Source: Dipteris shenzhenensis
Lineage: Eukaryota
Direction: 5' to 3' (one strand)
Length of the DNA stretch: 64,000 nt
NCBI GenBank assembly: GCA_047967505.1
Contig: CM106538.1
Both the position numbers and the translations under genes were made by a program. This document shows, in pieces, positions 15,421 to 50,547 of this stretch (positions within the stretch are counted from its first letter, which is position 1; the number at the start of each line of letters is the position of its first letter). The notes beneath the pieces are model-generated. The model ran no database searches, was not told the origin of the DNA, and saw only the letters and a list, made by a program, of their open reading frames with translations.

Positions 15421-16343
15421 GCACTTTTGGAGGCTTGAACCCATGACCACTTGCTTAGGGAAGAAGAGCCTTACCATTGAGGTAATCAGTTTCTCCTTCA
15501 TTTGCAACTGCTTCTTTCAAAGCTACTCATATGTGGATGTTATCAGCAACTCCTCCCTATCGTACAACTCTTTGGCTCTCTCCTAGGCTCGCATGCATTT
15601 TATTTTCATAGCTCAAGCTATCCATTTAAAGACCTTCTTATTGCATTTCAACTACTCCTAGGGTTGTCCATACACCAAGCTACTATGAGTTGTAGTCTCC
15701 TTATGACCTTCTCAGAAGCTTCTTGTCTTGGAATTCTATGAACTTTGAAATTTCTCTCAATCTTCTTGAATTCTTCTCTTCACTCTCCTAGTAGTGTTGA
15801 GCTTAGGACTCTATGCACAGGGTTGGTGTTTGATGAAGAGCTTCTACATAGTTCCTCCATGGTTGTGGCTATTAAAAACAAGCTTCTACACACTTTTATA
15901 GTAGCATGGTACTTGATACAATTGGAAAATTTGTTCATTGCATTTCACCACAATTTCTGTGGACAAATAAGACTTGGATATTCATGGACTATATCTATTT
16001 TCACAAGTAATAGAAAGCATATGCAAAACCTTTGTAGGGTAGTTATATAAGCAATTGCTTTTGAAGCATGTATGCTAGTAGTTAGAACTATCATATAGAT
16101 GGGATGGTTGTTCTCAGTTCTATGTTGTTGATCTAGAAGTTCAGGAGTTCCGAATGAGGAAGCATTATCTATCCACAGAACTCTATTTTGTTTAGTCTTG
16201 ACTATGTTTCCTACATTAGGGGAATTTTGGACTAAAAAAGGCCTTATAAGTGGATTAGCAAAATGGATTAAGGACTAATAAGGCCTATAAAGGGTCCCAT
16301 CATCCCCATATGAGTCCAAAAAAGTACACCTCCCTAGGATTTG

Positions 16344-18373
16344 GTGAGTGCACCTCCCTCTCCCACTTGGAGGATCCCCACCATGTGCAAGAAGTCCACC
16401 CTCTTTATACCCCAAGGTGGTCCCCGCTCCTAAAAGTATCTCGTGGGTACTACTCCCCCCAAAAATTTGAAATTTTTCAAAAGTGCCAAAAATGACGTGA
16501 AACCCTTCCAAACCGTCCCCTAAACCATGCATATGGACCCAGATTCCTTTCCAACCCTTGAATCCTTCTTCTACTCACCATAGTCACTTTCCAATGCCTC
16601 AATCCTTCTTCTTCTCATCTAATCACTTTCTAACCCCTGAATCCTTTTTCTTCTCACCATAATTATTTTTCATCATTTTTCTAACCATCTCATGGCTCCA
16701 TTGCAAGATTCTCCTATAATGTGGTGCTTGGTAGTTGATAGTGTAACAACAAAGCTATTTTGTAATCTACATTTTTTAATTACTTTCACTCAGTAACTCA
16801 AATCTATTTTCTCACACCTCTCATTGTTCCATTTCAATGTTACCAACAAGATGTAGAAGTGTTCCCTGAGTTACAAGTGCATGTGACAAAATGTGTTCTT
16901 GGTAGGTTGCGGTGGAGCAAGCAATCAATCAAAGGGTGCAAGCTACATGGCACATGAGGGCTACATCTAGGGATTATGAACTACCTTGTCCCTGTAGCTT
17001 ATTGGATAAACATTATTCAAATCTTTTCAAATATGTGGAAGTAATCTCAATTAGATTTCAAGGAACTTGAGCATGGATGGATAGAGCATTGAGGCAATCA
17101 AAGGTTAAGGGAAGAATCTTCTTCAACATGATGGAAGTGGTCATTCTTTAACATTTACCACTATACCCATCAACATTTATCTGTCTTGTATGTGTTCTTT
17201 TCCTTTAGAGGACACCTATTATATTATAGTGTGTCCTTTTGTAGACACTATATTTTGGCTGCCCAACGGAGGTTGCTTGTACTTTCCCTTTCTATGGTAA
17301 TTGATATTATTTCATTCTAAAATAAATAAATGTTATCATTCTCATAAAATAAAGTAAAGTGAGTGCACCTCCCTCTCCCACTTGGAGGATCCCCACCATG
17401 TGCAAGAAGTCCACCCTCTTTATACCCCAAGGTGGTCCCCGCTCCTAAAAGTATCTCGTGGGTACTACTCCCCCCAAAAATTTGAAATTTTTCAAAAGTG
17501 CCAAAAATGACGTGAAACCCTTCCAAACCGTCCCCCAAACCATGCATATGGACCCAGATTCCTTTCCAACCCTTGAATCCTTCTTCTACTCACCATAGTC
17601 ACTTTCCAATGCCTCAATCCTTCTTCTTCTCATCTAATCACTTTCTAACCCCTGAATCCTTTTTCTTCTCACCATAATTATTTTTCATCATTTTTCTAAC
17701 CATCTCATGGCTCCATTGCAAGATTCTCCTAAAATGTGGTGCTTGGTAGTTGATAGTGTAACAACAAAGCTATTTTGTAATCTACATTTTTTTAATACTT
17801 TCACTCAGTAACTCAAATCTATTTTCTCACACCTCTCATTGTTCCATTTCAATGTTACCAACAAGATGTAGAAGTGTTCCCTGAGTTACAAGTGCATGTG
17901 ACAAAATGTGTTCTTGGTAGGTTGCGGTGGAGCAAGCAATCAATCAAAGGGTGCAAGCTACATGGCACATGAGGGCTACATCTAGGGATTATGAACTACC
18001 TTGTCCCTGTAGCTTATTGGATAAACATTATTCAAATCTTTTCAAATATGTGGAAGTAATCTCAATTAGATTTCAAGGAACTTGAGCATGGATGGATAGA
18101 GCATTGAGGCAATCAAAGGTTAAGGGAAGAATCTTCTTCAACATGATGGAAGTGGTCATTCTTTAACATTTACCACTATACCCATCAACATTTATCTGTC
18201 TTGTATGTGTTCTTTTCCTTTAGAGGACACCTATTATATTATAGTGTGTCCTTTTGTAGACACTATATTTTGGCTCCCCAACGGAGGTTGCTTGTACTTT
18301 CCCTTTCTATGGTAATTGATATTATTTCATTCTAAAATAAATAAATGTTATCATTCTCATAAAATAAAGTAAA
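16344..18373. repeat. Near-perfect tandem duplication of a 1015-bp unit (16344-17358 / 17359-18373)
   Basis: The two copies are collinear, with only a handful of differences by eye (e.g. cccctaaac/cccccaaac, tataatg/taaaatg, ggctgccc/ggctcccc). Confidence 0.95.
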
Positions 18374-18719
18374 ATCATAATCTATGTTGTTTTATTCTTG
18401 TTGCTTGTTGAAGTTTACCCAAAACTCAATTTCAAAAAGGCCTCTTGGCCTCAATGTTCATGTGGGTGTGCAATTGGATCAAACAATGTAAGTTTGGCCC
18501 AAATGTGTGCTTGGCCAAGCGGACTTTGTTATGTCTTATGAGATTACTTCTTGCCCCTAATCAGCTCCTTCTTGGTGATTAGCAAGTTTCTCTATAATGA
18601 ACACCAGTACACCCCATTAGCCACACATCTATACAAAAAATCAGTTAAGCCAAGAAGAAAAAGTATTCTGTAAATAAAAGAAAGGCAACCACTTGAACTA
18701 CGCTTCAACAAGATTGAGC

Positions 18720-19110
18720 CCCAAATAGTGGTTCCCAATAAATAGGAGAGAAAAAATATGATTTGGAAAAATATTAGGCAATCTGGACCCCCCCCCCCAA
18801 AAAAAAAAAAAGACTATTTGTGGGAACCAGTATTTGGGGCATGGAGAGGCATTCCCCCCAAAACAATTTGAAAAAAAATGGCCAGATGGCCCCAGGTGTG
18901 AGTAGGCACGACTTTGGGCGATTCGGGGACCAAAGTCATGCTTGCTCACACCTAGGGCCATCTGGCCATATTTTTTTGGGGGGAATGTCTCTCCTTGCTC
19001 CACATAGTGGTTCCTAACAAATAAAAGAGAAAAAAAATTATTTGGAAAAATATTAGGCAATCTTGAACCCCCCCCCAAAAAAAGAAATTATTTGGAGGGA
19101 CCACTATTAG
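18720..19110. repeat. Compound palindrome: central hairpin flanked by two direct repeats that are themselves self-complementary
   Basis: tggccagatggccccaggtgtgagtaggcacgactttgg / ccaaagtcatgcttgctcacacctagggccatctggcca form inverted arms; flanking atagtggttcc...ttggaaaaatattaggcaatc...gg(a/g)acca units at about 18720 and 19000. Confidence 0.85.
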
Positions 19111-21559
19111 GCATCCTTGATTTGTTGGGAACCAGGTGTTTAGGGTTGAATTCTAGGTGTTTAGGGTCAAATTTTTAGAATTGGGCATGCAAATCCAAGC
19201 CAAGAAAGCACCTTAGAGTGCCTTGTTTACATATTCGGGCCATTATTTGCCCATCTGAATGGTTGAACCATGTAAATCACAAAGTATCAAAGTCGTAGCT
19301 TGGTGTAAAATCTACAACCCTCTCTTACAGATTTTTCCCAAAACCAATCATCTTCTTAGACATATTTGCCTTTCCAAAGTGCTCACTCTCAATATGTTGA
19401 TGAAATTGTGAAAACAAGTCATGGAAGCAAAAATATCGTGCAATGACCTATGGCCTCACAATGGGTACTCACAGAAAGTACGCATATTATACTCTACAAG
19501 GTTGATCTACAAATTCTATTCATATATGTCCCATGTGCATCCCTTTTACTTTTCATGCATATGCATATTATACTCCAAGATTGATCTATTACATAAATTC
19601 AATCGACATATTTATTTCTTATGTATTATGTCCTTCTCTAGTTATCGTTTTAGTGTTTACACTAAAACCAATAAGAACAAATGCCACTCTCAAACTTTTA
19701 GAGACAATTTGTCATTACAGATAATTGTTGCCTTATACAAGAATCATCGATATTATACAGATGTATGCCCCTAATAATCTCAATGTACCTCAATTCAATA
19801 GCATGGATATGCATGGACATGTTCCACAGGGGATTCACTAGTAGTAATAAGGAGATGTCACCTACGTGCAATAAATATATGAAAATTCCCCTTATCTACC
19901 ACCTATTTACAGGACCTTACCTTATAAAATGTACCTTCCTTCCCTTATATAACCCCCCTCCCTTACACTCACGTGGTACCATACGATAAACCCTAGTGGA
20001 CCCCCAGAGACATGTTCTATGCTTATGGTACAATTGATTTACAGGTGTTGCTTCTTTTAGATGCTCAACTACTTTTACTTTTGGATGCCAAACATTAGAA
20101 TATGATATGGATATCATTCATCGAGTCTTGATGGATATGTTAACTTTGAACTTTCAAAAGCTTTTCGCTTCTTTTAATAAAGAAAATTGAACATTTTTTT
20201 CCCACCCTTGTCTTGTCCTGTCTTCTTACTAAATCTTTGCATGCTTGATTTCCAAATAATTTAAATTTAAAAATGATGCATTTTGTTTATTACATCCAAG
20301 TTTTTGGTAAATTTGAAAAAGATCTTTAAAAAATGTTATATAATTTACAAAATTATGAAAGCAAAGTTTTTAAATACATATTCAATTATAATATTCCCTC
20401 TAACTTATATTATTCATGAGTCAAAGTTATTAATTCAATTAAAAAATCAATCTAGCTCTAAATATAAGCAATACCTAAGAGTGGAACCTTCCCAAAATGT
20501 TACTTGGAGTATTCCATCAAAGCATGTATTACTTGGGGGTTCAAGTTGCCAACTCCCATTCTAAGTAAATAATAAATACAAGTGATCACATGCAATTATG
20601 TCTGATTGTTTTCAAATGTGATGTAATGTCCAAGAAGTAAAGATAACTTCCAAATAGCTACATACATATTTCATATACACAACATAATACATATTAATTT
20701 GTCTCATCCATGCATGAGGTGGTGTATTTTGGCACCATTGGGATTTATTAAGCAAATAAAGACTCATATCTAACTAAACCTACATAATCTTTAAAAGTAG
20801 TACATTTTCAAAGACCATATACCTGTTGATTTAAAATCCCAAACACAACACGTATATCTATACCTCATCCACAAGATCCCAAAGACAACCTACTACCTAA
20901 TAAAGGAATTCATTCTAAGGGAATCTATGCCCCATCACTTTTTCTCAAGACTTACATCTACACTTCATTGACAAGATCCCACAAACAACCTAGCTACTCT
21001 CATCCATGCACAACAGATTGTTCTTCATCACACTGATTCATGTAGTAATTCAAAGTTGTCCTGGCTAACTAAATACAACAATTAACCTAAAGTAATACAT
21101 TCTGAAAGAATTATTATGATAATTTACAGAAAAAAATATAGATTCCAATGTGGTATAAAAAAATTATTGGAATATTGAATCAAATCATTTTAGCCAATGT
21201 ACATGAATGCTTCCATTCAATGAAAGATAGTATTACATCCATGTGCCTTTCTAATAACTTCTTGATTTTTAAATTTTTGATCTATAAAAGAAAATAATAA
21301 TCATTGTAAGGCATGCCCTCCCATTATGGTCATGAATTCACTTCTCATAGATATTGTAGTAGTGGTGCTTGGCAAGTCCCTAAATGATCAATTTTGATGC
21401 ATCTTGACAATTGCAATAAGTCAATCATTAGTATTTCTTTAAAATCATTAACTTAGTAATAGAAATTATAATATTTACAAAATAACTTCAAATCAAACAA
21501 AGTCTAAGAATCAGATCAAATCCTTATTATGTCCACTACATCATGATCCATAGGAATCC

Positions 21560-30131
<8,572 letters not shown>

Positions 30132-31704
30132 CAACATAGTCCTCTTACCCTTGCTCCCATACAAGCCCCTTTTGGGCAATGAAATACTCCTTCAAAATGT
30201 GTCTTACATCTAGTCTAGGGGAAAAGGAGCACTTCATAAATATGGAAAGAGTGGGAGAAAGAAAAAAGGAAGAGATTGAGAGGATGAGGCTACGAGCAAG
30301 AAGAGATTGTGACGATGTTGAGAGGAGGCTAAGGATATTGAGAGGGGGAGGATGAGTGGAGGTTGATAGGAGGAAGTTGAGAGGAGGAAGAGCTTGAGAG
30401 GACGATGTTGAGGGGAGGTTGAGAGGAGAAGGAGGAGGCTAAGAGGAGGCTGAGAGGAGGCTAAGAGGAGACAGAGGCTAGGAGGAAGGTTGAGAGTCAA
30501 TGGGGATAGTTTGGGGGGCCTCTTGGGAGGTGTTTGGGGGGTTGGGGAGACTTTTGGAAATCTTTGATTTTTTGGAGGGAAAAAAATTCACGATTTTGGG
30601 GACCACGGAGTGAGGGAGGAGGGTAGGGGGACCATGAAAAAGTCAAGGGGGGGAGTAAATGCCCCAGGAGGTGGTGGGGGAAAGACGAGGCAAGTGAGAG
30701 TCTAGTGGGGACCAAGGGACGTCTCTCCACCAATGAGAGGCCAATATGGAATCCTCCATTCTTTTAATGCCCAAGCCTTCCTATTGGCTGGTTTACTAAT
30801 CACAAATCTTAAGGGACTAATCCAAGAGGCCCTTTTTGAGTCCAAAATTCCCCTAATGTCTGATGTACTAAGTTTTTAGCTATACAATCAGTATTACTCA
30901 TTATGATCTTTGCTGTTCTGAATTCAGAATTGAAATGTTAGTTGTCTTTGAAAGTTCTTACTATGCTTATCTATTTATCTCAATAGATAGTTTTTCAGAT
31001 AAGTCTCTACCTATTACATTGGCAATCCTGCAAATAAATTGGACACTTGGATTGTGAGAGATGTGTGAAGAGCGCACATGGCTTCTTTATGCAAGCATTG
31101 TGGAGAAAATGCACATGTTGTAAAGCATAGGGATATGCTGCTAAAATCAAAGAAGGAGAGTATTCAATGTCTACAGTGACAAATCCAAGTCTTGTGAAGC
31201 AATGTTCAAGCGCTCAAGTCCCCGTTCAATAAACTTCAGATGTCAAGAGCGCACGGGGTAGAATTTAGTTAACAATTGCAAATTTTCAATAGATGATTTG
31301 TAATTTTCAATAGAGGATACGTGAAATTGTCGAAGGAAAAATTCTAGATTGAGTTGCAGTCCATGGTGGCTGAAGATGGTGAATTTTGGGAGCAGTGAAT
31401 TCTTATAGCATGTTCATGGAGGCATTGGTAGCGAATGTTAGACGTAGGAGAACCTGCGACATCTCCTCGATGAATTGGCCATCCATACTTCACCAGGGCT
31501 CTCGGGCTAGAGGTCAAACAAGTGCCTTTGAAGAGAATTCGTTGGGCGAGCCTACACAAGGGCGTGGTCAGAGAAGCATCCTAATGTCTCTATGCCAACA
31601 TGGACTTAGGTAGCCATAATGTGTGTGTAGAGTAGCGGCAACAAAGCTCCTCATGTACTTGCATAAGGTTAGGAATAATCTCTCTTAGGAATCCTCAACA
31701 TGTC

Positions 31705-33468: not shown

Positions 33469-34085
33469 CATTAGGAAAGAAGAGAACTCATTTTGGGGCC
33501 CTCTAAGAAATTTGCTATCTACCTATTTTTGTTACACCCAAAATATGGAAACTGCCATAAGATGCAGATACTTATTACTGCAAAAAAACCAATGTAGTAC
33601 CTAGGCTTCACATTGAATATGAATATAAGATCCTCTATTTTTTGTGCAGAATTTAATGATTATGACATTGTCGACGTGTCTGGAGTGGTGGGCTGAAACT
33701 CCCAAATCAACCCTAGAGACACATAATGTTGGAGAAATACCAAAAATCATGTAAAAAGATAAAAGAAGTCATATTCAAAATCTCTCTCTTTTATTATGTC
33801 TGACATACGTGATCTTCGAAGAAGTTTCTCTGTGCAGAATTTGATGATTTTGACATCGTTGGTGGATCCGAAGCAGGCCAAAACCCCCAAAGACACTAAA
33901 AATTGACGCCTGGAGGCCCGAAAAAGGAAAAAAATGTATAGAATGGAAGAGACAGTAAAATACGATTTGGCCTCTGGGCGTCGGTTTTTGGTGTCTTTGG
34001 AGTTGATTTGGGGGTTTTGGCCCACTCTAGATGCATCGACGATGTTAGAATCATCAAATTCTACACAGAGAAACATTAAGATCAA
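33469..34085. mobile_element. Truncated CATTAGG-family MITE-like element (left TIR plus internal palindrome)
   Basis: cattaggaaagaagagaactcattttggggcc at 33469 matches the TIR at 40147; internal tgtgcagaattt(g)atgatt...aatcatcaaattctacaca inverted arms resemble those at 40346-40713; right end replaced by Copia sequence. Confidence 0.8.
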
Positions 34086-34086
34086 G

Positions 34087-36299
34087 AGAATCTTCTCAAA
34101 GCAATGCAGATAGTGGTACGCAAGTATCACACGAAAAGGAAAAGAGAAGGTAGATCAGCCCATGTTTGATGTGAATGTAGGTCACTCTTATGTGGATGGT
34201 GAATCCAGTGGCTTAGAATAGAGCATTGATGATGAGTTGGGTATTCCTTCTGTTGTTACACTTGGAGTACAGAAAACCAGGGATGTTTTGAGAGCACCTG
34301 GAAGTGAGCCTATTTTGTGCAGGTCTACCAGAGCTAGATATCCTATGGATAGGCTGAAATATGATGGACTTACAACCATTCACTATGCCTATATGGTCAA
34401 AGTGATGCAGGATCCAGAACCCACTTCTTTTTGAGCAAGCCATGGATGAATAAATGGATGCCTTGGAAGCAAATGCTACATGGGAATTGGTGCCTTTGCC
34501 TAAAGACAAGAATTCAATTGGCTGTAAGTGGGTTTATAAGGTGAAGCACAATGCAGATGGTTCTGTGAACAGATACAAGGCAAGATTAGTTATCAAGGGG
34601 TATGCACAGACATATGGCATTGATTATGAAGAAACATTCATCCCAGTTGCAAGGATGGCAACCGTAAGAGCAGTCATTGCTATGGCTGCATCAAAGGGAT
34701 GGTCTTTACATCAGATGGATGTAAAGAATGCCTTCTTGCATGGTGATTTGCAAGAAGAGGTATTTATGGAGTAGCCACCTAGTTATGTTCATGCTGTTCA
34801 TCCTGAGTTTGTTTGCAAGTTAAAGAAAGCCTTGTATGGCTTGAAGCAAGCGCCTAGAGCATGGTCTAACAAGATAGGATAGTATCTTGTCACTATTGGC
34901 TTTCAGATTTCCAAGGCAGATTTCTCACTTTATGTGAGAAAAATAGAGAAAGGTATTATGCTGCTTGTCATTTATGTTGATGATTTGATCATCACAGGTG
35001 ATAGTGATGAAGATATTCTTCACGTGAAAATGCTATTGAAGCAAAAGTTTGAGATCAAGGATTTGGGAGAGCTACGTTATTTCTTGGGCATTGAGGTGAT
35101 TAGATCACCAAGTGGGATATAGCTCTTGCAGAGGCAGTATGGACTGGACATGCTGTCCAAATATGGGATGACAGGCTGTAAGCCTATTTCAGTTCCTTTG
35201 GAGCAGAATGTGAAGCTGAGCACAGATGCAGGTGAGCTTCTAGAAGACCCTACTATGTACAGATGCATAGTAGGAAGTTTGATTTATATGACTATTACCA
35301 GGCCAGATTTGAGCTATGCTGTTGGATTGGTAAGCCAGTTTATGTAGGCTCCAAGGAAACTACATTTGGATGTGGCTAGACACATACTCAGGTATGTGAA
35401 GTCCACATTGCAGTATGGACTATTTTATGAGGCTGGGGTTCAGATACAATTGCATGGATACACTGATGCTGACTGGGCTGGTATTATTTCTGATAGACGA
35501 TCTACCAGTGGATATATGTTCTCTTTTGGGAGTGCTTTTGGGAGTGCTGCAGTCACTTGGAGCAGCAAGAAATAGCCTACAATTTCCTTGTCAAGCACAG
35601 AGGCTGAGTACAGGGGTGCAGCAATGGTTGCATGTGAGGTAGCTTGGTTGCATAAGCTACTCTATGATATGCATCAGTCTACAGATGGGCCAGTTGTCAT
35701 TTATTGTGACAACATGAGCTGTATACACTTGGCAAATAACCCATTCTATCATGCTAGAACAAAGCACATTGAGGTGCATTATCACTATGTGCGGGAGAAG
35801 GTTTTACTAGGTATTATTGATCTAGTTTATGTTAGCACAGAGGATCAGGTAGCTGACATATTCACAAAGGCATTGGGCACAAAGAAGTTGCGCAAGTTCA
35901 GAGACCTGCTTGGTGTGCAAGAATTGGGATTGAGCTCGAGGGGGAGTGTTGAGATATCGAGCTCCACTCGTGATATGCCAGGGTGACCGTTGTGCATTTA
36001 TGTCACTGACTTGTTAGCTGCAGATGCGGTTGGTACATCACCCATGAATAATAGCTGGATGATAGCTATCCTTATCTACTCTAGTTCGTGGCTCAGTCAA
36101 TATGCCACCTTAGTTAGCTGAGTTTGGTTTGAGACCCATATATAGGGTTCTTCTATTTCTTTGTACTAGAGTTCTTTTGGCTTACACAACTAAGAAGAGG
36201 AAAACTATTTTCAGCCTTCGCCTTTTGTGTGTATTTCCCTATTGTGTATGTGAGAAAGCCACAAGTGAGACTCTATCCCTCTCTCCCACTATTTTCACA
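34087..36299 (+). mobile_element. Copia retrotransposon 3' half (RT, RNase H, PPT, 3' LTR 35947-36299), older copy of the 55524-61555 family
   Basis: Collinear with about 59330-61555; YVDDL, YTDADWAG, KHIEVHYHYVRE; multiple CAG>TAG stops; LTR TGTTGAGA...TCACA. Confidence 0.96.
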
Positions 36300-36389
36300 G
36301 GCGATCTACTCGGAGACACTTCTATGATGAGGGGTTGATTACTGAGGACCAAAATACTAGTGAGCACTATTATAAGTTTGTCTTGCTAT

Positions 36390-36543
36390 TTTTAAAAGCA
36401 CGTCTATACATGCATCTCTCTATTATATAGATGCACCTTTAGATGTGGGTCTGTGGATGCACTAATAGAAGCACCTATAACTTTTTAAAAAAATTCAATA
36501 AACGCATTTGAAAATGCATCTATGGAAGCATTGTGTTGTTGTG
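36390..36543. mobile_element. CACTA-like right terminus (subterminal repeats plus ...TGTGTTGTTGTG)
   Basis: Subterminal motifs (tagatgcac, gcactaataga, gcatcta) shared with 44840-45078 and 50400-50547, ending in the reverse complement of CACAACAA. Confidence 0.65.
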
Positions 36544-39500
36544 GTTGTCTTTTTGAATATTGAAGTTGTATGCAACGGTTGAGGGTTCAAACACTGGGTC
36601 TACTCTTCATTCATCATGGATTTAGCATCACATCCCTCACCAGTCTCCTGTGGGGTGCAGCAATTGCCAATTGCCGATTTTCTTAGAGTGGGAACTCATG
36701 CTTCGAGCTAATTAATGTCTATGATTGCTATTGCATCTCGACTTTTTTTCTATGATTTGGCGTTCATTTTGACTCACGAGGTGTAAAGAAGCAAAAAATC
36801 AAAGTGCAAGCATTTTACTTCAACTATGACTATCATCATGCCCGATCCCTTCTCATTGTCATGTTGAGAGCTCATGCTCAACATCATGTGATCATGTGTG
36901 CATAGCACCATCATGTGATCATATGTGCATAGCACTAACCCAATAGAGTGCTATAAAGGAAAGGGTTAGATCCCCTAACGCTAAATGGGTTTGTATATAT
37001 TCTACATTTTCAACTAAATCTAGTGTACAGTTAGTCATTTGTGGTGTGCTCTCTAGCTGTGCCCTCTCTCCTCATCCCCACTCTTCTCCTCTCCCCTCTT
37101 CATATTTTATCCTTGTATTAAAGCTCCCTTGCCTTCTGCTGAGGCATTGCGATCCTTGAGAGTGCGAGAGAGATTGAGAGATCGAGAGAGATTGAGTGTT
37201 CCATTCACTTCCGTAGAGTGATAGAAAATTTTCCTTCATTGGAAGAAATTCCATCCATTTCCATTCATTTAGAGTTCTTTCTTTCATGAGAGAAAGAGAG
37301 GTATTCTATTAAGAGTTTTTCCATCCATGCATGCTCATTGCGGAGAGATTTCTGTGAGAAAGAGGTACAGAGAGAAAGAAAGGTTGATTGATGTGAGCAT
37401 ATAGTTCTTTGAGAGACTATTGAGAGTTTGAGAGAGTTCTTCATTGAGAAATATTTGTGAGAAAAGAGAGATTTTTGAGTCATCTGAGAGTGAAAGAGTC
37501 TGAGTGCTATTGTGCTAAGACTCTGGTCAACAAGCTCTCCTTGAGAGCTCAATTATCCTCTCCAGCGACTCCAACAGAGCTCCAACGGCTCATCAAGCCA
37601 AGCCACTCCTCCATTCTAGGTGGCTACTATAGCAAGCTCTCCTTTATTGGTTCAAACGATACGCGGCTTCCTTCCAAATGCCATCACGACTCCAACAACT
37701 ACCTGTGCTTGCAAGCTCATGGCTTCCACGAGCCTTTGCAACACAATGTTGTTGCTGCTTGCTTCCGGACTATGTGCCCACGTACCAAGCCTTGCAACTG
37801 TTTCACAAGCTCGAAGAGCCCACTGAGCCAAGTAGCCCCTGAAGGCCTTCTCTACTTACGCCTCCAATAAACAACGAGTGTCAATTGCTTGTTAGATGAA
37901 CAATAGCCGCAGCTGCCTCATTTCGCTATTCGTCAGGGGTGCTTTGGAAAGGGCAACAGTTACAAGAAGTTGTGGATGAGGATATCTATGTAGAAGAAAT
38001 AATTCGCCATGAAATAATCTCGATAGCTGCCATGACAGCCATTGCATACTTATCTGGTTTGGCTTCCTCTCCAATGGCGGGCTGCTCCATTGCCTTCTCC
38101 AGCACACGATGCCAGTAGCAAACGATGCCACAAGTAGCTCCGCACTCCAAGCTGCTCCAACACGAGCCCTCAACGAGCCAACGTCCCAGGCCTTTTGCAA
38201 TTGCATTAGCACCAACCAAACATCTACTGCTACACTGTTACAACTTCACCGACTTCAACTCCTCCATGAGCCAAAGCTCCACGAGACGTAATAGCTGAGC
38301 GCCAATGACTGCAACTACTACAACGCTATGCCAAAGCCTCACCTCCACCGCCAGCTTGTAGCAACGACTCGAGCGCCTTCTCTTGCAAGGCAACTTCCAG
38401 CGCCCACCGGCCTCTAACAAGTACACAGTCCATTTGGATGCGCCTCCTCGATAGTCTATTATCAGGCTCCACGTAGACAGCAAGGTCTAGAGTTCACAGA
38501 GCTCCCTCACCTACACAGAGTGGAAGATGGCACTCCATCACAACAAAGGCAGCCACGGAGAAGACGACAGAATCTTCAAGATTCCATCGAAATCAAAAAG
38601 ATTTTGGTTGCCCACGTAAGGAAATGTGGCCTCTACAGAAGGCCTTATCCTCTAGGTGACATGTGGCACCTTATCATGCAACATCAGCAACCACCTCCAG
38701 CTACCACATCAATAGCTCCGTTAGGTTGCCACATCATCATCTAGCTGGTCAACTGCCATGTCATCCTTATCTGCCACGGTGGTAACCACGTTAGCACTAC
38801 CAAGTCAATAGTCCACATCAGCATCCACATCACTTGCCACATCATATGCCACATCACTTGTGCCACATCATCATTGCCCAGTTAGCTACCACCCCATCAG
38901 TGCCATTATGCCAGCCTTGTAAAGCCTCTTGGCTATTCTCAACTCATTTGCCACAAGCCTTGTAGCACACATCATATTTTATATATTGCGGTTCTATCTT
39001 CACCGCCGACAGTTTAGATTTCACTTGGCACAGTTAATGTTTTGTAGTTGATTCATACAGTGATTTTCATGACACTTTGAGTACATTTCTTGCACCATGT
39101 CTATGACTCGCAACCTCAATCTGGAGGCATCTACTAAGCTAGACAACTCCAATTATGGCACATGGAAATACTGAATGGAGACCATTCTTGTACTTCAGGA
39201 CAAATGGGAGTATGTCGATGGATCTACACCTAGACCATTGGACGATCCAGCCACCAGTAGCTCTACTTTACCTATTGTCATAGCACTAGCAGTGGGATCT
39301 ACAGCTACACAAATAGTTTACGCACTTGTAGCAGATCCTACCATTGCATGAGCTTAGGCAGAATGGGATAAGAAAGATACGTACGCCTATCATCTGATCA
39401 AGCAGAATGAGCAGGATGTCATGCTAGGACAGCTCAACATAGTTAAGACATCGAAAGAAGCATGGGATACGTTCGTAGCTCTCTACGAATCCAAGAACAC

Positions 39501-40146
39501 ATCCAGGATTCTCACATTGAGAAACCAAATCAATTAGAGTTTTCGCAACAGCAAGCAAAACCGGTCATGCTTATGTACTCTAGATAAAAGACTACAACAA
39601 TCAACTTGCAGCAGCATAAGAGACTATGAACCATGCAAAAATGGTTCAAGTAGTCTTGAATGGACTAGGAGAAGGATACGAGAATCTAGTCCAGAGTATT
39701 GCCATCCAACAGCAAATTGTGACACTTTAAGAACTTCAGTCAGTTCTACTTGGTGAAGAACTCAGGACACAAGCCATTCAAGCATGCAAAGGTCATTCTA
39801 ATAATTAGGCATTCACAGCTTCAGACAGAAGAAAAGGCAGAGGTAGATCATTCCACAAAAGTGGTCATCATCAGCAACAAAATAAAAGTTAGAATCAGGA
39901 TCAGCATCATCCTCACAGCAACATCATAATCAACAAAGAGGAAATCATTCCAACCGAGGAAGATTCCAAGGACGAGGAAATGCATCCACCAATATGTCAA
40001 ACATTCAGTGCAACTACTTTCACAAGTTTGGACACTATGAAAGAGATTGCCGCAAGAAGCAGCACGACCAAGGCGGTCAATCCAATAGTAATCGAGGAAA
40101 TTTCTGCGGCAAAGGAAATCATCATGGTGGACATTCTAGTCACAAT

Positions 40147-40887
40147 CATTAGGAAAAAAGGGAGCTCATTTTGGGGCCTTTTAGAAAAGAGAGAAAATAG
40201 GCTCTCAACCAATCAGGAGTGGGCCAACGTAACGTTGAAAATTCAACAAAAGAAGATGAAAATAAGAAAAAGAAATAGTACTATATGTTCGTAGAAGCAT
40301 GTCACATTAATGAGGTGATCTAATTTGAATCTTTTAAAAATTTATTTTTTGTGCAGAATTTGGTGATTCTGACACCGCAGACGCGTCCGGAACGGCCCAA
40401 AACCCCAGAAACGGCACTGGAAACACTGGAATCGGACATCCGGAGACCCAGAAACGGCCAAAAAAGGCCGAAAAGTGGGATTTGCAGTAAAACGCGATCG
40501 GGCACCTTTTGAATCTACATCCGAAGGCCCGGAAACGGCCAAAAAAGGCCGAAAAGTGGGATTTGCAGCAAAACGCGATTTGGCACCTTTTGAGATTTGG
40601 CCGTTTCCGGGCCTCCGGATGTCCGATTCCAGTGTTTCTAGTGCCGTTTCTGGGGTTTTGGGCCGTTCCGGACGTGTCTGCGGTATCAGAATCACCAAAT
40701 TCTGCACAGAAAAGTGTTGCTCTTATATGAACATTGAATGTAAAGCATGTGAAAGAATATATTTATTCCTTTTCACAGTGACATTTCTCATGCAAGTATC
40801 CATATTTTCTTGCTTTTGTAGAGAGAGAAAAGAGAAAATAGTGAATTTCTTACAGGGCCCCAAAATGAGCTCTCTTTTTTCCTAATG
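40147..40887. mobile_element. Complete 741-bp CATTAGG-family MITE-like element with nested inverted repeats
   Basis: 32-bp outer TIRs with one mismatch (cattaggaaaaaagggagctcattttggggcc / ggccccaaaatgagctctcttttttcctaatg); inner inverted arms about 40346-40462 and 40596-40713; central duplication 40451-40512 / 40532-40593. Confidence 0.92.
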
Positions 40888-40892
40888 CATTT

Positions 40893-41729
40893 CTGAATAG
40901 TAGGGGTTGGATTCTCTCTAGAGCCCCCCATTGGGAAAGCTTCTTCATCACCACAGATTTGCATAGAAATTTCTGGAGGAGGCTCCGAAAATCCCTCAGA
41001 AATAGAAAGATCACTCTTTTCTTTTGGCTTTCTATTCATGGAGGGATTGCAGCAAACCTGTGGAGATCACGATTTGGGGCTGATCCCACTTGTTCTTGTT
41101 GTCATTCTGCAGAGGAGTCAGTGCGACATTGCCTTTGGAACTACAATCAGGCGAGGACTGTTTGGAAAGGGGTTGCTCGGATACTCAGCATCTTTCATGC
41201 TTCCCCTTCCTTCATGACTTGGGGCTCGGTCGCATGGTTACTGCGCCCCAGGTGTTTTATGAGGGTGAGCCTTCTTCTTGGGCACTCTCGGTCTGCCGGT
41301 AGGTGATAGAGCCCTACTCTCTTTAGGATGTACCACTTACTCCCTTCAGAGCTTCTCATGCTTCAGTGGACACCTCTTGGGAGATTTTGGCTAGCATTTC
41401 CTCTTGGCACATTTGGAGAGCCAAATGTACAGAGGCTATGGATGGCACCCAGCATCACAGGTATTTGGACTGACACGGTTCACACTTTGATAGCCATATG
41501 GGCTAGCATGTAGGGCCCTTCATGAGCAGCCTCTTCTAAAAGGACTATATTTCTTTGAGTTTGGAGGGGTTCTCCCTTTTTCTTGGAGGTTTCTATCAGA
41601 TTGAGATGGCACTATCAACCTCAATCCTTTCTTTTTGGCTCTTGAGCTTTTCATGCATTGCATGATGTATCCCGTATTGCTCCAACGGTTTTCTTTGATA
41701 CTTAATAGAAGTCTCTTTTTGCAAAAAAA
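40893..41729 (+). mobile_element. 5'-truncated LINE with A-tail and 14-bp TSD
   Basis: zf-RVT region (FFWLSIHGGIAANLWRSRFGADPTCSCCHSAEESVRHCLWN); tail ...cttaatagaagtctctttttgcaaaaaaa; TSD agtcacaat|cattt versus agtcacagtcattt (41729-41742). Confidence 0.9.
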
Positions 41730-42683
41730 GTCACAGTCATTTTGCAAATGAACATGGGAATATATTTCTTGCAAGCAAGGAAATGCAACAAACTGATACA
41801 GTGTACCTTCACACTGATTTCAATCCAAAAGAGAATTTCAGCTATCAAGTCGATCAAGCAAAATAGGATCCTTGGTATATCGACAACGGTGCATCATCTC
41901 ACATGACAAATCATCAATATTGGTTCATAGAGATGAAACCATTAGAAGGCCAAAAAAAGGTCATCTACATAGCAAATAGTACATCGAATCCAGTTTAAGG
42001 GACAGGTGTTATCCTTATGAAAAATTTCACTGGTACGAAAGGATTGGTGAAAGATGTACTCTATGTTCTGAAGCTCAACAAGAACCTCTTGTCAGTAGGT
42101 CAAATGGCAGAACACAACTACCGAGTCATCTTCGATGGAGATGAATGCACTATCAGAGACAAATCCAGAACATGTCAACTAGTAGCAAAAGGTATCAAGG
42201 AAGGACACTTGTACAGAATGCTAGCTACAGTACCAATAGATAAGCATGCCATGTCAGCTCAACCGCAATAGATGCCACTATCTGCAAAATGGAACAAGAG
42301 ATATGGTCATGTCAATTTCAAGTACTTGCTAGACCTTAGGAATTAGAATATGGAAATTGGGATTCCAAAGCTACAATTTCTTGGAAAAGTTTGCAAGCAT
42401 GCTACTTCGGCAAACAAAAGCGAACCAACTTTGGGAGAAGTACCTCTCATGCATGAGGTATTCTTGATTTGATTCATACAAATGTATGGGGTTATGCCCA
42501 AACCCGCAGCATCAATGGTTCACTTTACTACTTGACTTTCATCGACAACTACAGTAGATATTGTTGGGTCTAATTTTGGAAAGAGAAATTTGAAGTCTTT
42601 TCCAGATTTCAAGAATTCAAAGCTATGGTAGAAAACTAGACATGCAGAAAGATCAAGGTCATGAGATCAGATACAGGAGAGTA

Positions 42684-45078
42684 CACTATTACTACAATTC
42701 GTACTCTCACTGAATGCATGAGGTGTTTGAAGAGGGCCTTTACAAAGAGCAAGAAAAGAGGTGTAGAGCAATTATATGGCTTGAAATGTCATGATTGGCA
42801 CAAGATGCTCCAAGAAAGTATTTTATGTGCACAATATCTTTTTCCTTTCAAATTTGTGAGTGAATTAGAAGCAACTAATCAACTATTTCTCGTGTGTTCA
42901 GTTCATACTACCTACTAGCATTTCTCGTAGTGCATCGAAGGACATGAAGGATTGTATTTACAAGATGGGTGAGCTTGTGAGGTACTTTACATGATACAAA
43001 ATGTGATGCGTATCAATGCTCCATGCAAGGTGTTCATATTGCTAATATGGTGTACTTTTTCATTTCTAGGTATGTGAGCTCAAAGGAAATAGATTCCACC
43101 ACGCTTGAGAATGCTCAAGTTATGTCAGTGGAGGTGGTTTGTTTAGTGGAGGAGACATTTCCACGTTCTATTCTCACAAATCAACTAGATCTCATAGTGC
43201 ATTTGGTGGATGAGATTGCTATATGCAGTACTATACATGCACGATGGTTGTTCTTCCTCGAGCGCTTCATGAAGACCTTGAAGGGTTTCATGAGACAAAA
43301 TGCAAGACCCAAAGGTAGCATGGCCGAGGGTTGGTTGGTACAAGAGTCACTTGTATATATTTTTGAGTTTCTTGTTGGTGCGGATAGCTCTCTCCCACGA
43401 CTATGGAGAGATGATGAAGACCTAAGGATGACCTCCATTGTGTCTCATGGGAAAGGATGCAACAAAGTAATAGACACGGAGTTGCTTAATAATATCAACC
43501 TCTATTGCATGCTTAACAGTGATGTGATGAAAAGATGGGTGACAAGATACGAGGATGCAAAGGCAAGAAGACAAGAAGAAAGGGCCCTCTTTTGTACACA
43601 CCACAGATCTCGTGTGCCATACCCTCAATATCTAAGAGCACTTCCAAAGGATATTCATGTGGATTGGCTACTTGACGAAATGGAGAAAGCAGAGAAAGAC
43701 GAGGGGATGCATATCACAATGGAAGAATGGGAGTATGCTAGGAGATGCATAAGCAAGGTTGGTATATAGAATGTTATGCATAAGTTAGGAGCTTTCAATA
43801 ATTTAGATTGCTTATTTAATTGATTTTGGTCTAGTGCACTATGTTCAATGCTATATGGTCTGAGGGCAAGCATTTTCAAACACAACGGATTGATGATAAG
43901 AGAAAAACACAAGATTGCGGCATTATTGCTAGCTTTGAGGGAGCCAATGGAGCCATGGATGATTATTGTGGCATAATCCAAGATATTATTAAGCTTGACT
44001 TTTGACGCTTCTTTGTGTATGTTTTGGATGTAAAGTGGCTTAAGGACGTGGTGGAAAGAGGCCCTAATGCAACAATCAAATGCCATGCAAATGGCTTTGT
44101 AACTATTGACTCCACAAAGTTTTGGCAAAGTAAGAAGGACACACTAGTACTACCACAACGATGTGAACAGGTACTGTACACACATATAAAAATACTCACT
44201 TTTAAATATTTGATACCTTCGATGCAAGGAAAATAACATGATTGTATTTGTGTTTAAATTAGGTTGTCTATCAACCAATGGTGGATAATAATAGATGGTG
44301 GCATGTCATACCTATTATGCCATGTTCCAAAGTGATGTATAGTACATTTACTAATATGGAGCATATGGAGGATGATCATGGCCATGGAGCTGATGATGAC
44401 CATGATACGAGAGAGGAGGATGATCATGAGATAGGAGATACAGATATTGAGGCCATTACCTATGAGAACGAGCCTACCATTGGTGATGCTGATTTCCATG
44501 AGCACATGAGTAGCACAAGTAGTAGTGGGTTGAATGTATTTGTAGATCTAAACACTCGTTTGGATTTTGAAGTAGATAGTTTGGCAAGGGTTGACCTCAT
44601 TGAGGATGAGATTGAACCGTAGCCCATCATTAATATTGGCAAAACTATTTTACATATTGTCTCATTCTCCTCACCTCACTTAATTTTTTAATATGTGGGT
44701 TTGCAAAAAAGCATTGATGTTTTTGTTAAAATTATGTGCTTTGGTAATCAATATGGGCAATGTTTGGAAAGCACTGATGTACACCAAAATCTCAATTTCT
44801 GTATTCTCTGTTTTGTGTCTAAATATGCATCTAGTTCTTAATGTAGACACACTAATAGACACGCTAATACACGCGTAAATAGATGCGCTGTCTTTGTGCT
44901 ATTAGATGTAGTGTTAGACGAGCCTGTATTTTCTCAGTGTAGATGCACTAATAGACACGTCAATACACACGCAAATAGACACGTTGTTAGGTGCACTGTT
45001 ATTCAAGCAACGCCTATAGACACGCCTATTATTTTGCGCATCTATCTAGCACGTCTCTAGGTTGCTTTGTGTTGTTGT
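42684..45078 (+). mobile_element. CACTA/En-Spm element, 3' part (transposase C-terminal exons plus right terminus); paralog of about 48250-50547
   Basis: LYGLKCHDWHKMLQ, HLVDEIAICSTIHARWLFFLERFMKTLKGFMRQNARPKGSMAEG (DUF4218-like region); GT-AG introns; subterminal tagacacgc repeats; ends ...gctttgtgttgttgt. Confidence 0.9.
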
Positions 45079-45079
45079 C

Positions 45080-48000
45080 AGTGTTAGGTGCACTTTTAGA
45101 CGCTCCAAAAAGTTTTGACATTTACAACTCATGCAAGAACAAATTTTTTGGGTTGTTTATTTGTAGGATGTCTTCATCTTCAACAAGTAGCTCCAGTGAG
45201 GATGCATCCCTCCATATCCACCATCGCAAAATGTGGTTGGAGCAAAAAATCCAATGTATATGTGATCGATGTTGAGAAAACATGTATCGTGCACGCAGAA
45301 TTACACTCAATCACGTCTCAAAGTATGGAGAAAGGGATGTGACCGTAAACATGGTAAGTGTTAGAGTTAAGGTTGATTGAGATACCTATGGATGTTCATG
45401 TGTATGAGTTATAATCCCATTTTCATTTGATACAGGATGCAGTGCCACACCCGCATATGTTGCCCTATGCTCATCGTGAGGAGGCGAAGCGTCGGTGATA
45501 TGAGGTGGGATCTTCAGGAGGGACCGTTACGAATGCATGGAGTGATGGTTATAGTAGCCCTCCACCATTACCTCATGAGGCCATGGAGGAGGAGGTATTT
45601 GATGATATGGTGCAGGATTTATATGTCCATCAATCCTCAGGTAGGGATGATAGCATGGAGTAGGATTATCTTTTTACTGTAACATTGACTCCACTATTTG
45701 AGGGGTGCACATTCTCTGTTCTACGTGCCTCCCTTGAGTTACTAAACTTAGAGATGATCTATGGATGGAGCAATGCAAGTTTGAATGCATTACTCAAGTA
45801 AGCTTTAAAGTCTATTTTGCAAACATGGTGAATTATGCTAGTGGGTCAATTACTCGAATGCTTTTTCTCATTCATGATCTTCATGTGCACGCTATTGTGT
45901 AAAATGCTTCCAAGGGAGAATAAATTACTGACCTCAAGAGATATGGCAAGGAAACATGTGACCTCTCTTGGAGGATTAGATTACAAGCGCATCCATGCAT
46001 GCGTCAACGATTGCGTTCTGTTTTGTGGACCACATAAGGATGCAAGAGAGTGTCCTACTTGTGGAGAGGCAAGATATAGAGCAGATCTCGAAACTTTGGA
46101 TGTGCCTCGGAGGTGCCTCGTAAGGTTCTGTGACATTTTCCCATAATCCCTCACATCCAACATATAATCAAGTGCAAATCCATTGAAGAGCTCATGTCAT
46201 GGCATTCCTCCCATCGATCAACCGATGGCAAGTGGAGAACTCCTGCAGACACTCCTGCGTGGAAGCATATTGAAGACACATGGCCAATGGCCAAGCTTCA
46301 AGGAAGAACCTAGGAGCTTGAGACTTGGATTGGGTATGGACGGTGTGAACCCATTTGGTCTCAAAAGCACCTCTTACAGTATATGGCCAGTGATATTGGT
46401 GAATTATAATCTTCCACCCTCTATGGCGATTAAGAAAGAACATGTTATGTTATCCCTTCTAATTCTAGGGAAACATAAAGTAAAAAATCATGATGTTTAT
46501 TTGGAGCCTTTGATTAATGAGCTAGAGATACTTTGGAGAGGTATCGAGGTGCATGATGTGAGCAGGCCTCCCTCGTCACGAGACTTTAACTGCAAAGCAG
46601 TCTTGATGTGGACAATGCATGACTTCCCAAGCTATGGCGAGTGTTCAAGTAAGCATTGCACTTTTAATTATGAGTAGGCAATCGATGTGGCACCCTAAAC
46701 TCACCTTTAACTCTTAATTATGTCTATTATTCAAGTCTCACTACATTGGGTTACCATGCATGTCCTGTTTATGGTCCTTCGCTAGTTGCCTCATGGGCAA
46801 ATGCATTGAATAAGGTCATCTATGAGAATCACCATCGATTTCTTCCACCTAATCATCCTAGATATGTTGCCCCTTGGAATGAAGTCCCCCCACAGTCACT
46901 CACTACAAGATATTGGATGGCGCCACGACTCCTCCACCACTTGGCATGAGTCGATAAGGTTTTGTAACTATTATGTCCTATATTGAATGGAAATAAAGAT
47001 TGCCCGCTAACACCAGCTTTTGTTTAGATACTCCATCTTTTATCGTTTACCATATTGGTCCCACCTCAAGATGAATCACCTACTTGATCCCATGCATACC
47101 TTCAAGAATGTGGCATCTACCATTTGGGAACATTTGAATGGGACATGAGATTCCGCAGGCATAAGGTAGGATCTACGTGTTAGATATCAATGCTCCACTC
47201 TCGTGTAACTACACGAGAACTAGCTAACTCTACTTATAAGCTCCCCATATGAGGAGAAGGCATTTGACTAGCTCGATTATCCGGTAGGTCCTGGTTTGGA
47301 CACCAGATGGGGGCCATGTGTGGCTTGATGGCTTGGCGGCTTCAGATAGAGTTGGCACACTGCCAACTAGGCTACATGAAAGTGCGAGAAGGCATCCCAT
47401 GAGTGACCGCATTGAGGGTAGATGGAGCATTTCTCGGGGTAGCCCACTCTCAAGTTATGGGGCCCGTTTGGAGCCCCAGATGATCCCGGATGGCTCTATT
47501 TTGCACCATAGTTCTATCGTGTGGTCGGTGGCCTATTTCGAGACCGACCCCCAGTCGGCCGTTTTGGGTGGACTAGGTCGGTCACCCAATTGGATCTAAC
47601 TGACTACTAGTGGTGGCTATATAAGAGCAAGCCCGTGAAGCCCACTCGAGGGGGTCACTATGTATAAACCCTCTATATCACATGCATCTAAGGCCTATTT
47701 TTAAAATCCCTTATCTGTAATTTTTTCATTAATATAATGTACCCCTTTTCTATACAAATCTGTAATTTCTTTCAAAACTATTTTAAATAGTCCCTTATGT
47801 ATATTTATTTTTGTAAATTTTAGAAATAAAAAATATCCTTATGTTGAACTCATGTGATAGGGTTACATATGATGAATGACCCCCCCGAGGAAGCCCATTT
47901 CATCACTGGCTACAGCAACCCTGATTCCTTAGCATCCAGCCTCCATCCTCTATTGTTTCCAACATGCCATCAAAGCTTCTTTCACAGGAGTGCACGGTTG

Positions 48001-50547
48001 GGAGGCAGCGCCATCTATTGTATCAGTTCTACAGTAATCAAAATTTTGATTCTCCATACTATCTACTTTTCTTTCTTGCATACGAGATCCTGTTATCTGT
48101 TGACCACAGACATTGTATTGTTTTCTTACACTGTGCACCACAGGGAGGATGCGTGAAGCTTGGCCACAAGAGAGGCCAAATGGGCGTGTCTTTTTACCTC
48201 GTGCACCGTGGAGGTTATCAAAATTAGAGATGGTGGCGGTGTAGCAAGCTATCACTACAATTCTTACTCCCACCGGATGCAGGAGGTGTTTGAAGGGGGT
48301 CTTCACAAAGAGCAAGAAAAGAGGTGTAGAGCAATTATATGGCTTCAAATCTCATGATTGGCACAAGATGCTCCAAGTAAGTATTTTATGTGCATAATAT
48401 CTTTTTCCTTCCAAATTTGTGAGTGAATTAGAAGCAACTAATCAACCATTCCTCGTGTGTTTAGTTCATACTACCTACTAGCATTTCTCGTAGTGCATCG
48501 AAGGACATGAAGGATTGTATTTACAAGATGGGTGAGCTTGTGCGGTACTTTACAGGATAGAAAATGTGAAGCGTATCAATGCTCCATGGAAGGTGTTCAT
48601 ATTGCTAATATGGCATACTTTTTCCAGCTTTCTAGGCATGTGAGCTCAAAGGAAATAGATTCCACCACGCTTGAGAATGCTCAAGTTATGTCAGTGGAGG
48701 TGGTTTGTTTAGTGGAGGAGACATTTCCACGTCCTATTCTCACAAACAACATCTCATAGTGCATTTGGTGGATGAGATTGCTACATGCAGTACTATACAT
48801 GCACGATGGTTGTTCTTGCTCGAGCGCTTCATGAAGATCTTGAAGGGTTTCATGAGACAAAATGCAAGACCTGAAGGTAGCATGGTCGAGGGTTGGTTGG
48901 TACAAGAGTCGCTTGTATATATTTCTAAGTTTCTTGTTGATGTGGATAGCTCTCTCCCCCGACTATGGAGAGGTGATGAAGACCTAAGGATGACCTCTAT
49001 TGTGCCTCAAGGGAAAGGATGCAGCAAAGTAATAGACACAGAGTTGCTTAATAATATCAACCTTTACTGCATGTTGAATAGTGATGTGATGAAAAGATGG
49101 GTGACAAGATATGAGGATGCAAAGGCAAGAAGACAAAGAGAAAGGGCCCTCTTTCGTACACACCACGGATCTCGTGTGCCATACTCTCAGCATCTCAGAG
49201 CACTTCCAAAGGATATTGATGTGGATTGGCTACTTGACGAAATGGAGAGAGCAGAGAGAGATGAGGGGATCCATATTGCAATGGAAGAATGGAAATATTC
49301 TAGGGGATGCATGAACAAGGTCGGTATATAGAATGTTATGCATAAGTTAGGAGCTTTCAACAATTTAGATTTCTTATTTAATTGATTTTGTCTTGGTGTA
49401 GTGTACTATGCTCAATGGTATATGGTGTGAGGGCAAGCATTTTTGAACACAACAGATTGATGATAAGAGAAAAACACAAGATTGCGGCGTCATTGCTAGC
49501 TTTGAGGGAGCCAATGGAGACATGGATGATTATTGTGGTATAATCCTAAATATTATTAAGCTTGACTTTCGACGCTTCTTTGTGTATGTTTTGGATGTGA
49601 AGTGGTTGAAGGATGTTGTGGAAAGATGCCCTAATGCAACAATCAAACGCCATGCAAGTGGCTTTGTAACTATTGACTCCACAAAGTTTTGGCAAAGTAA
49701 GAAGGACACACTAGTACTACAGCAACAATGTGAATAGGTATTGTATACACATATAAAAATATTCACTTTTAAATATTTGATACCCTTGATGCAAGGAAAA
49801 TAAAATGATTGTATTTGTGTTTGAATTATGTTGTCTATCAACCAGTGGAGGATAATAATAGGTGGTGGCATGTCATACCTATTACACCACGTTCCAAAGT
49901 GATGTATAGTACATTTACTAATATGGAGTGTATGGAGGATGATCATGGCCATGGAGGTGATGATGACTGTGATATGAGAGAGGAGGATAATCATGAGATA
50001 GGAGATATAGATATTGAGGCCATTACCCGTGAGCACGAGCCTACCATTGGTGATGCTGATTTCGATGAGCACATGAGTAGCACAAGTAGTAGTGGGCTGA
50101 ATATATTTGTAGATCTCAACACTGGTTTGGATTTTGAAGTAGATAGTTTGGCAAGGGTTGATCTCATTGAGGATGAGATTGAGAACCGTAGCCCATCATT
50201 GATATTGGCAAAACTATTTTACATATTATCTCATTCTCCTCACCTCACTTAATTTTTGTATATGTGGGTTTGCCAAAAAGCATTGATATTTTTGTTAAAA
50301 TTATGTCCTTTGGTAATCATGGGCAATGTTTGGAAAGCAGTGATGTACATTTATCAGCCTGCACCAAAATCTCACTTTCCGTATTCTCTGTTTTGCGTCT
50401 AAATCTGCATCTAATTCACAGTGCAGATGCACTAATAGACACGCTATTAGACACACCCATATTTTCACTATTCTAGCAGCACCTATAGACACGCCCGCTA
50501 TTTTGCACATCTATCAGGCACATCTATAATTGCTTTGTCTTGTTGTG
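45080..50547 (+). mobile_element. CACTA/En-Spm element with multi-exon Tnp2 transposase pseudogene; left TIR missing, right end ...TCTTGTTGTG
   Basis: YKRIHACVNDCVLF..CPTCGEARY; PRSLRLGLGMDGVNPF...WPVILVNYNLPP...DVYLEPLINEL (Transposase_21-like); HLLDPMH; GFKSHDWH; ERFMK.LKG; stops and frameshifts. Confidence 0.93.
47178..48130 (+). mobile_element. Solo LTR (953 bp) inserted in the CACTA transposase
   Basis: TGTTAG...CTTACA ends; TATA-like ctatataag near 47618; flanks CTACG/CTGTG form a degenerate 5-bp TSD; removal restores the transposase frame DLRTTGRMREAWPQERPNGRVFLPRAPW. Confidence 0.8.

Follow-up and report, generated by a model that had tools for sequence, protein, structure and literature searches.

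Among transposons with terminal inverted repeats, integration without a target site duplication (TSD) is described for Spy, a group of the PHIS superfamily that inserts flush at AAA/TTT (the slash marking the insertion point), a behaviour demonstrated with paralogous empty sites (Han et al. 2014, PMC4122938). The AAA and TTT are host DNA (PMC4122938), the ends read 5'-GGANNNNG, the repeats are 10-12 bp in silkworm and the group is reported only from invertebrates (PMC4122938, PMC4482050). A literature search found Spy as the sole inverted-repeat group without duplications in print, as far as the accounts in these two papers extend (PMC4122938, PMC4482050). The present analysis concerns El-1, a 741-bp element that starts with CATTAGG at position 40147 and ends with CCTAATG at 40887 of a 64,000-nucleotide stretch of Dipteris shenzhenensis DNA (contig CM106538.1 of assembly GCA_047967505.1), which as a whole is referred to as the window. 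El-1 is read here as a non-autonomous member of an inverted-repeat transposon family that integrates flush, Spy-like but without the other defining features of Spy, with a probability of about 0.5.

The length of the TSD differs between the transposon groups with which El-1 can be compared: it is TA in Tc1/mariner elements (Stowaway), 8 bp in hAT and 9-11 bp in Mutator. The TSD of PIF/Harbinger elements (Tourist) is given as TWA (PMC4482050). The rolling-circle elements of the Helentron/Helitron2 (HLE2) and HINE type are described with short subterminal repeats of 12-16 nt, the right one followed by a 3' tail that carries a stem-loop, and with T-rich T/T targets (PMC4067079, PMC11417382).

Structure of El-1 and its insertion site

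The window consists of plant-type repeat DNA with Ty1/copia elements, zf-RVT-containing long interspersed nuclear elements (LINEs) and transposase domains of CACTA type. El-1 is found within a decayed Ty1/copia element (Table 1). A tblastn search with the protein of an apparently intact copia element of the window placed residues 257-303 at 39937-40068, where the CCHC knuckle is encoded, and residues 346-524 at 41867-42397, with the protease motif DNGASSHMT beginning at 41867; the host sequence ends at about 42685, where it is cut by a CACTA-type element. Two nested insertions, a LINE fragment and El-1, separate the knuckle from the protease motif. The LINE fragment has a zf-RVT match (E 5.9e-6) of 27.3 bits, just under the curated cut-off of 27.5, shares 78% identity with another LINE (9165-9328 and 9969-10053), and is bounded on both sides by agtcaca(a/g)tcattt. 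Its A run covers 41723-41728, and the A at 41729 can be assigned either to the run or to the duplication. The 3' copy of this duplication does not contain El-1, which means that the LINE arrived first and El-1 second.

The 3' copy is also an empty site within the window. When El-1 is excised, the joined 14-mer equals agtcacagtcattt at 13 of the 14 positions. The sole difference is a G/A transition (40145 versus 41736), which would fit ordinary methylation-driven decay, G41736 being paired with a C in CTG context on the other strand. The host reads AGT CAC AAT CAT (S-H-N-H) in the gag frame at the left copy; at the right copy the reading is AGT CAC AGT CAT TTT (S-H-S-H-F), and this frame continues into the protease motif. 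Both copies are thus in the same codon phase, which identifies the 14-mer as host sequence of one phase that has neither gained nor lost bases. The cattt on the right side of El-1 is target DNA and not LINE sequence, because the homology to the paralogue at 9165 starts at ctgaatag, which is preceded by atcag in the paralogue and by cattt in the LINE at 40893.

The insertion site of El-1 is ACAAT/CATTT, between T40146 and C40888. Agreement with the empty site extends over 13 nt at the left junction and over 5 nt at the right one, with CATT as the overlap. El-1 starts with CATT and is followed by CATT on its right side, so that a duplication of 0, 1, 2, 3 or 4 bp is arithmetically possible; the junctions are exact and there is no duplication longer than 4 bp. 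The ends of El-1 are symmetric only at 0 bp, while with a duplication of 1-4 bp the left end, and no other, would be shortened by C, CA, CAT or CATT. All three family termini read CATTAGG, beside the different flanks acaat/, accac/ and aaatg/ (the last read in reverse), and because the heptamer is constant across these flanks the outer C is taken as the first base of the element. The true length of the duplication is probably 0 bp.

Several known types of insertion disagree with this site. With at most 4 nt common to the flanks, the 8 bp of hAT and the 9 bp or more of Mutator are impossible. The empty site contains no TA, TTA or TAA, and insertion of Stowaway (Tc1/mariner) or Tourist (PIF/Harbinger) type is therefore excluded. 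Two further candidates were rejected. A LINE-mediated chimeric retrocopy would place the duplication entirely upstream of El-1, and CATTA as a host target comparable to the AAA/TTT of Spy is contradicted by the empty site, which has no CATTA, so that CATTA belongs to the element.

An initial annotation of the stretch had proposed that El-1 entered the 5' TSD copy of the LINE without any duplication, and when the sequence was re-read the coordinates and strings of the element, its flanks and the 3' copy were all recovered. Its empty site, its order of insertion and the dissimilarity that it noted between the site and the AAA/TTT of Spy hold as well, and the paralogue at 9165 answers its question whether cattt (40888-40892) belongs to the LINE consensus. 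Its claim that a TSD is lacking is retained in part: the 3 bp of CACTA, 8 bp of hAT, TWA of PIF, TA of Tc1/Stowaway and at least 9 bp of Mutator are absent, but the ambiguity of 0-4 bp caused by CATT had been overlooked.

El-1 has no coding capacity. The only open reading frames (ORFs) present are short and of low complexity and none is credible, and a protein search with the ORF that spans the left terminus gave nothing at E <= 0.01 among proteins of 73-233 residues. An Rfam search of 33300-42000 gave three matches, every one far under the gathering score. The first 32 nt of the El-1 end have three matches in the window versus 0 expected (100 shuffles). The loop of the inner long inverted repeat contains an 81-bp tandem duplication (40436-40593, period 81, 2.0 copies, 92% matches), and the single strand of the whole element folds into one long hairpin at -228.8 kcal/mol (z = -25.7, 20 shuffles). 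El-1 thus resembles the MITEs (miniature inverted-repeat transposable elements) of plants, including those of Tourist, Stowaway, hAT and Mutator origin, in being short (741 bp), non-coding and hairpin-forming, with inverted ends and two copies within the window.

The likeness to Spy consists of terminal inverted repeats and flush integration with the target left intact, demonstrated by a paralogous empty site, which for El-1 is one site where 0-4 bp are formally possible. The differences concern the site, which is acaat/cattt and not AAA/TTT, the host, which is a plant where the Spy reports name invertebrates, and the ends. The latter begin with CATTAGG; read from the internal GG they give GGAAAAAAG with A at position 8 and thereby depart from the consensus 5'-GGANNNNG. 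Spy is further defined by a PHIS-type DDE transposase in its autonomous copies; no autonomous copy of the El-1 family was found in the window.

Table 1. Positions of El-1, its host sequences and other CATTAGG-ended sequences in the window
Feature	Position	Strand	Basis
El-1, non-coding element with inverted ends 5'-CATTAGG...CCTAATG-3'	40147..40887	+	sequence, fold, ORF listing
Left terminal inverted repeat of El-1	40147..40188	+	42 nt, 88% complementary to 40846-40887
Right terminal inverted repeat of El-1	40846..40887	-	1 mismatch in 32 nt versus left end
Inner long inverted repeat of El-1	40345..40713	.	arms 40345-40462 and 40596-40713, 118 nt, 95% complementary
5' TSD copy, first 9 nt agtcacaat, El-1 left flank	40138..40146	+	S-H-N in gag frame
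5' TSD copy, last 5 nt cattt, El-1 right flank	40888..40892	+	LINE paralogue has atcag there
LINE fragment, 5'-truncated, 836 bp, short A run at 3' end	40893..41728	+	zf-RVT match; LINE paralogue
3' TSD copy agtcacagtcattt, empty site in the window	41729..41742	+	S-H-S-H-F in frame leading to protease
Host, decayed Ty1/copia (gag, CCHC knuckle, protease, integrase start)	39085..42684 (about)	+	tblastn with protein of the window's own intact copia
Second, partial family copy with one terminus kept (CATTAGG at 33469), rest rearranged	33469..34074	-	end match, alignment
Candidate of a second family, 14.6-kb element or two ends, CATTAGGGGAATTTTGGACT...	16214..30858	.	arms 29 nt, 97% complementary

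Other CATTAGG-ended sequences in the window

The partial copy at 33469 differs from the El-1 end at 3 of 32 nt and aligns best to the reverse complement of the right side of El-1. The inner hairpin module sits at the same relative place in both copies and was therefore already part of the family ancestor. The flank ...tcaccac is unlike either flank of El-1, and the similarity stops exactly at the C of CATTAGG. A rearrangement with a copia fragment at 34075 has removed the far end of this copy, and the breakpoint there was set against the paralogue at 59319. Pairing of the 33469 end with the 40887 end as a 7.4-kb element was rejected, as host copia sequence reaches 40146. A second complete hairpin module (GTTTCTCTGTGCAGAATTT...AAATTCTACACAGAGAAAC) is found at 33824-34074, 180 nt past the first arm and ending exactly at the copia junction, and it may be that the inner hairpin is mobile on its own. 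A short-word search of the window with all five end sequences gave no additional ends, and a search for the end sequences as text in the literature matched primers and viral sequences only.

A scan of all CATTAGG sites in the window gave one more pair, in which CATTAGGGGAATTTTGGACT... starts at 16214 and its complement ends at 30858. The arms match at 28 of 29 nt, and the end sequence has two matches in the window versus 0 expected. Apart from the terminal heptamer these ends are unrelated to those of El-1. That the heptamer is common to two families points to a common site of transposase recognition or cleavage. The flanks ...tttccta/ and /tctgatg contain no 3-bp or 8-bp repeat. Both this pair and the partial copy at 33469 speak for 0 bp at El-1.

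Several repeats are found in the interval between these two ends. A 1015-bp tandem duplication with 99.5% identity (16344-18373), which begins 130 bp inward of the left CATTAGGGG end, seems very young relative to its surroundings. At 18823-19014 there is a compact palindrome of about 190 bp with two nested arm pairs, 85-89% complementary, which may represent a further hairpin element. Direct repeats are present as two pairs, 21586-22495 with 25808-26718 (91%) and 24020-24790 with 29176-29955 (87%); these have offsets of about 4.2 kb and 5.2 kb and suggest an old segmental tandem duplication.

Possible mechanism and alternative explanations

Flush integration of El-1 could have come about as follows. 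A 5'-truncated LINE had first landed in the gag-protease linker of the Ty1/copia element, giving the 13-14-bp duplication. A transposase supplied in trans would then have recognised the CATTAGG ends, cut flush with the outer C and joined each 3' end to one of the two target strands at an identical position, that is with zero stagger. El-1 would thereby have entered the 5' duplication copy between T40146 and C40888 with the target bases neither duplicated nor lost. Zero-stagger joining was presumably likewise deduced from flush insertion by the authors of Spy (PMC4122938). For the enzyme of El-1, a DDE-type transposase that acts in trans is the best guess. The hAT, CMC, Transib and P groups typically have termini of the form 5'-CA...TG-3', and the presence of such termini on El-1 is the reason for assuming a DDE enzyme of that broad kind.

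The evidence consists of a single clean flush insertion, one more case that is suggestive and a common terminal signature, which together give partial support to flush integration by a family of this kind, and flush insertion may be a rule of that family as a whole. A further step, taken here only tentatively and with somewhat more doubt than trust, is that the CATTAGG-ended elements constitute an undescribed plant superfamily or deep lineage with cut-and-paste transposition and zero stagger at ordinary, non-AAATTT sites.

A number of observations weigh against a family that integrates flush. An empty site is available for one insertion only, the 16214/30858 pair having none. The repeat of that pair can be read as one base longer (ACATTAGG...CCTAATGT), which leaves CT on both sides; this may reflect a 2-bp duplication or a coincidence with odds of 1 in 16. 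The pair may delimit one large non-autonomous element or be two separate ends, and in the latter case it does not represent a single insertion. A six-frame Pfam search of the 14.6 kb between them gave 0 families and no transposase, nor was a transposase gene linked to the ends of El-1 or of this pair found in the window. Pattern scans of public contigs gave no true further copy: the metagenome contigs gave 0 matches and then one in a GC-rich, bacterial-looking contig (L001), judged to be chance, the genome contigs 0 and then one chance 20-mer in bacterial coding DNA (L002) where the similarity ends after the 20-mer, and the viral contigs 0 both times. A plant example also has a low prior, because flush integration of inverted-repeat elements has, in the Spy literature cited above, been described only for Spy, in invertebrates and at AAA/TTT.

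The single empty site and the want of one for the 16214/30858 pair would also be expected of a one-off aberrant insertion, where the family normally makes a TSD and an excised copy was captured at a chromosome break by end joining or inserted by abortive transposition. Capture of filler DNA at double-strand breaks is established in plants and counts in the same direction. End joining, however, usually trims or adds bases, whereas both termini of El-1 are intact to the last base and the target has lost nothing, and the second CATTAGG pair is likewise without a 3- or 8-bp duplication; a one-off event is therefore considered unlikely, although it deserves to be kept in mind. An atypical CACTA (CMC) element is clearly improbable. 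El-1 shares with CACTA/En-Spm the 5'-CA...TG-3' termini followed by an A-rich stretch and the existence of non-autonomous derivatives, and CATTAGGAAAAAA of El-1 resembles CACTA-type ends such as CACTACAAGAAAA. CACTA remnants are present in the window, with the transposase domains Transposase_21 and DUF4218 nearby at 42981-46674, and the flanks AAT and CAT agree at two of three positions, so that CATTA could be CACTA with one transition and aat and cat a decayed 3-bp duplication. The agreement of cattt with the host would then be a coincidence, which requires a 5-nt chance match (1 in 1024) in addition to a specific substitution, and the agreement of the 14-mer and of the reading frame is broken. 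All five termini examined read CATTA and none has the 5'-CACTA...TAGTG-3' form. The 3-bp (2-4-bp) duplication of CACTA elements is lacking: aat and cat conflict with the 14-mer empty site, and cta and tct of the second pair, whose ends nevertheless match at 28 of 29 nt, agree at none of three positions. None of the Transposase_21 and DUF4218 ORFs is linked to CATTAGG ends, and a DUF4218-bearing repeat copy in the window starts with CACTACAATTC.

Two explanations that involve another kind of enzyme are weaker still. A non-autonomous HLE2 rolling-circle element would have short inverted repeats, hairpins, often internal tandem repeats and no duplication, and El-1 has in common with HINE, DINE-1 and HLE2 elements an unmodified target, inverted repeats, a large hairpin and the internal 81-bp tandem repeat. 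HLE2 is reported from land plants (PMC11417382), and the hallmark of Helentrons, an in-frame helicase-endonuclease fusion, is present at about 51.2-53.1 kb of the window. On the other hand the repeats of El-1 are 42 nt long and end exactly at both junctions, there is no 3' tail with a stem-loop, the site is T/C, and El-1 has no sequence similarity to the 50-56 kb region, which makes such an origin very unlikely. The initial annotation had suggested an unrecognised group that was either blunt-inserting or mobilised by a recombinase, and the recombinase is the weaker half of that suggestion. A site-specific recombinase would use CATT as a 4-bp core, with a circle carrying the palindromic junction CCTAATG/CATTAGG recombining with a target CATT; the outcome would be CATT at the left end and in the right flank, that is a 4-bp 'duplication' and asymmetric ends. 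CATT is indeed found at 40147-40150 and 40888-40891 and once in the empty site, but a repeat of 4 nt counts for little, being expected by chance at about 1 in 256, and the right end of the 16214/30858 pair is followed by tctg and not by catt. Transposons of tyrosine and serine recombinases (Crypton, IS607-like) are moreover described as lacking inverted ends (PMC3627910), in contrast to the 42-nt inverted ends of El-1, and this explanation is very unlikely.

Neighbouring elements and meaning of a possible flush integration

Downstream of the host copia element, a CACTA-type element is present in two copies that are 92% identical, at 42686-44866 and 48249-50446 (+). The first copy, which truncates the host at about 42685, contains a DUF4218 ORF at 42981-43766, and the second, which begins with CACTACAATTC, has one at 48675-49328; a Transposase_21 ORF is found between the copies, at 46168-46674. 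Further downstream, at 50674-53117 (+), the frame of a PIF1-like helicase (51281-51751, E 4.6e-15) continues, through two stops, as that of an Exo_endo_phos endonuclease (52428-53117). The helicase-endonuclease fusion is a hallmark of Helentrons (HLE2), which according to PMC11417382 have only recently been reported from land plants. No Rep domain was found upstream of the helicase, and the Helentron-like copy looks 5'-truncated. An ORF with an AP2/ERF DNA-binding domain (53474-54133, +, E 2.8e-13) lies directly downstream of this remnant and could be a captured gene fragment or the relic of a host gene. The apparently intact Ty1/copia element of the window occupies 56006-61556 (+), with 330-bp long terminal repeats (56006-56335 and 61227-61556) that are 98.8% identical and an uninterrupted gag-pol frame of 1462 codons at 56854-61239.

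The length of the TSD is the main structural key for the classification of DNA transposons. Annotation pipelines for plants rely on it and drop inverted-repeat candidates that have no duplication. A plant family with true flush integration would be systematically missed by these pipelines. Such a family would also extend what is known of eukaryotic transposase chemistry beyond Spy, and CATTAGG would be a new terminal signature with which to find the enzyme. Should El-1 prove to be a one-off case, it would still be a clean duplication-free capture, dated by the nested LINE. If the CATTAGG-ended elements do form a lineage of their own, they would follow Spy as the second group of inverted-repeat transposons without TSDs and would be the first in plants. 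Flush insertion as a property of the whole family would mean that Spy-like integration occurs with different ends, at a different target and in a different host kingdom.

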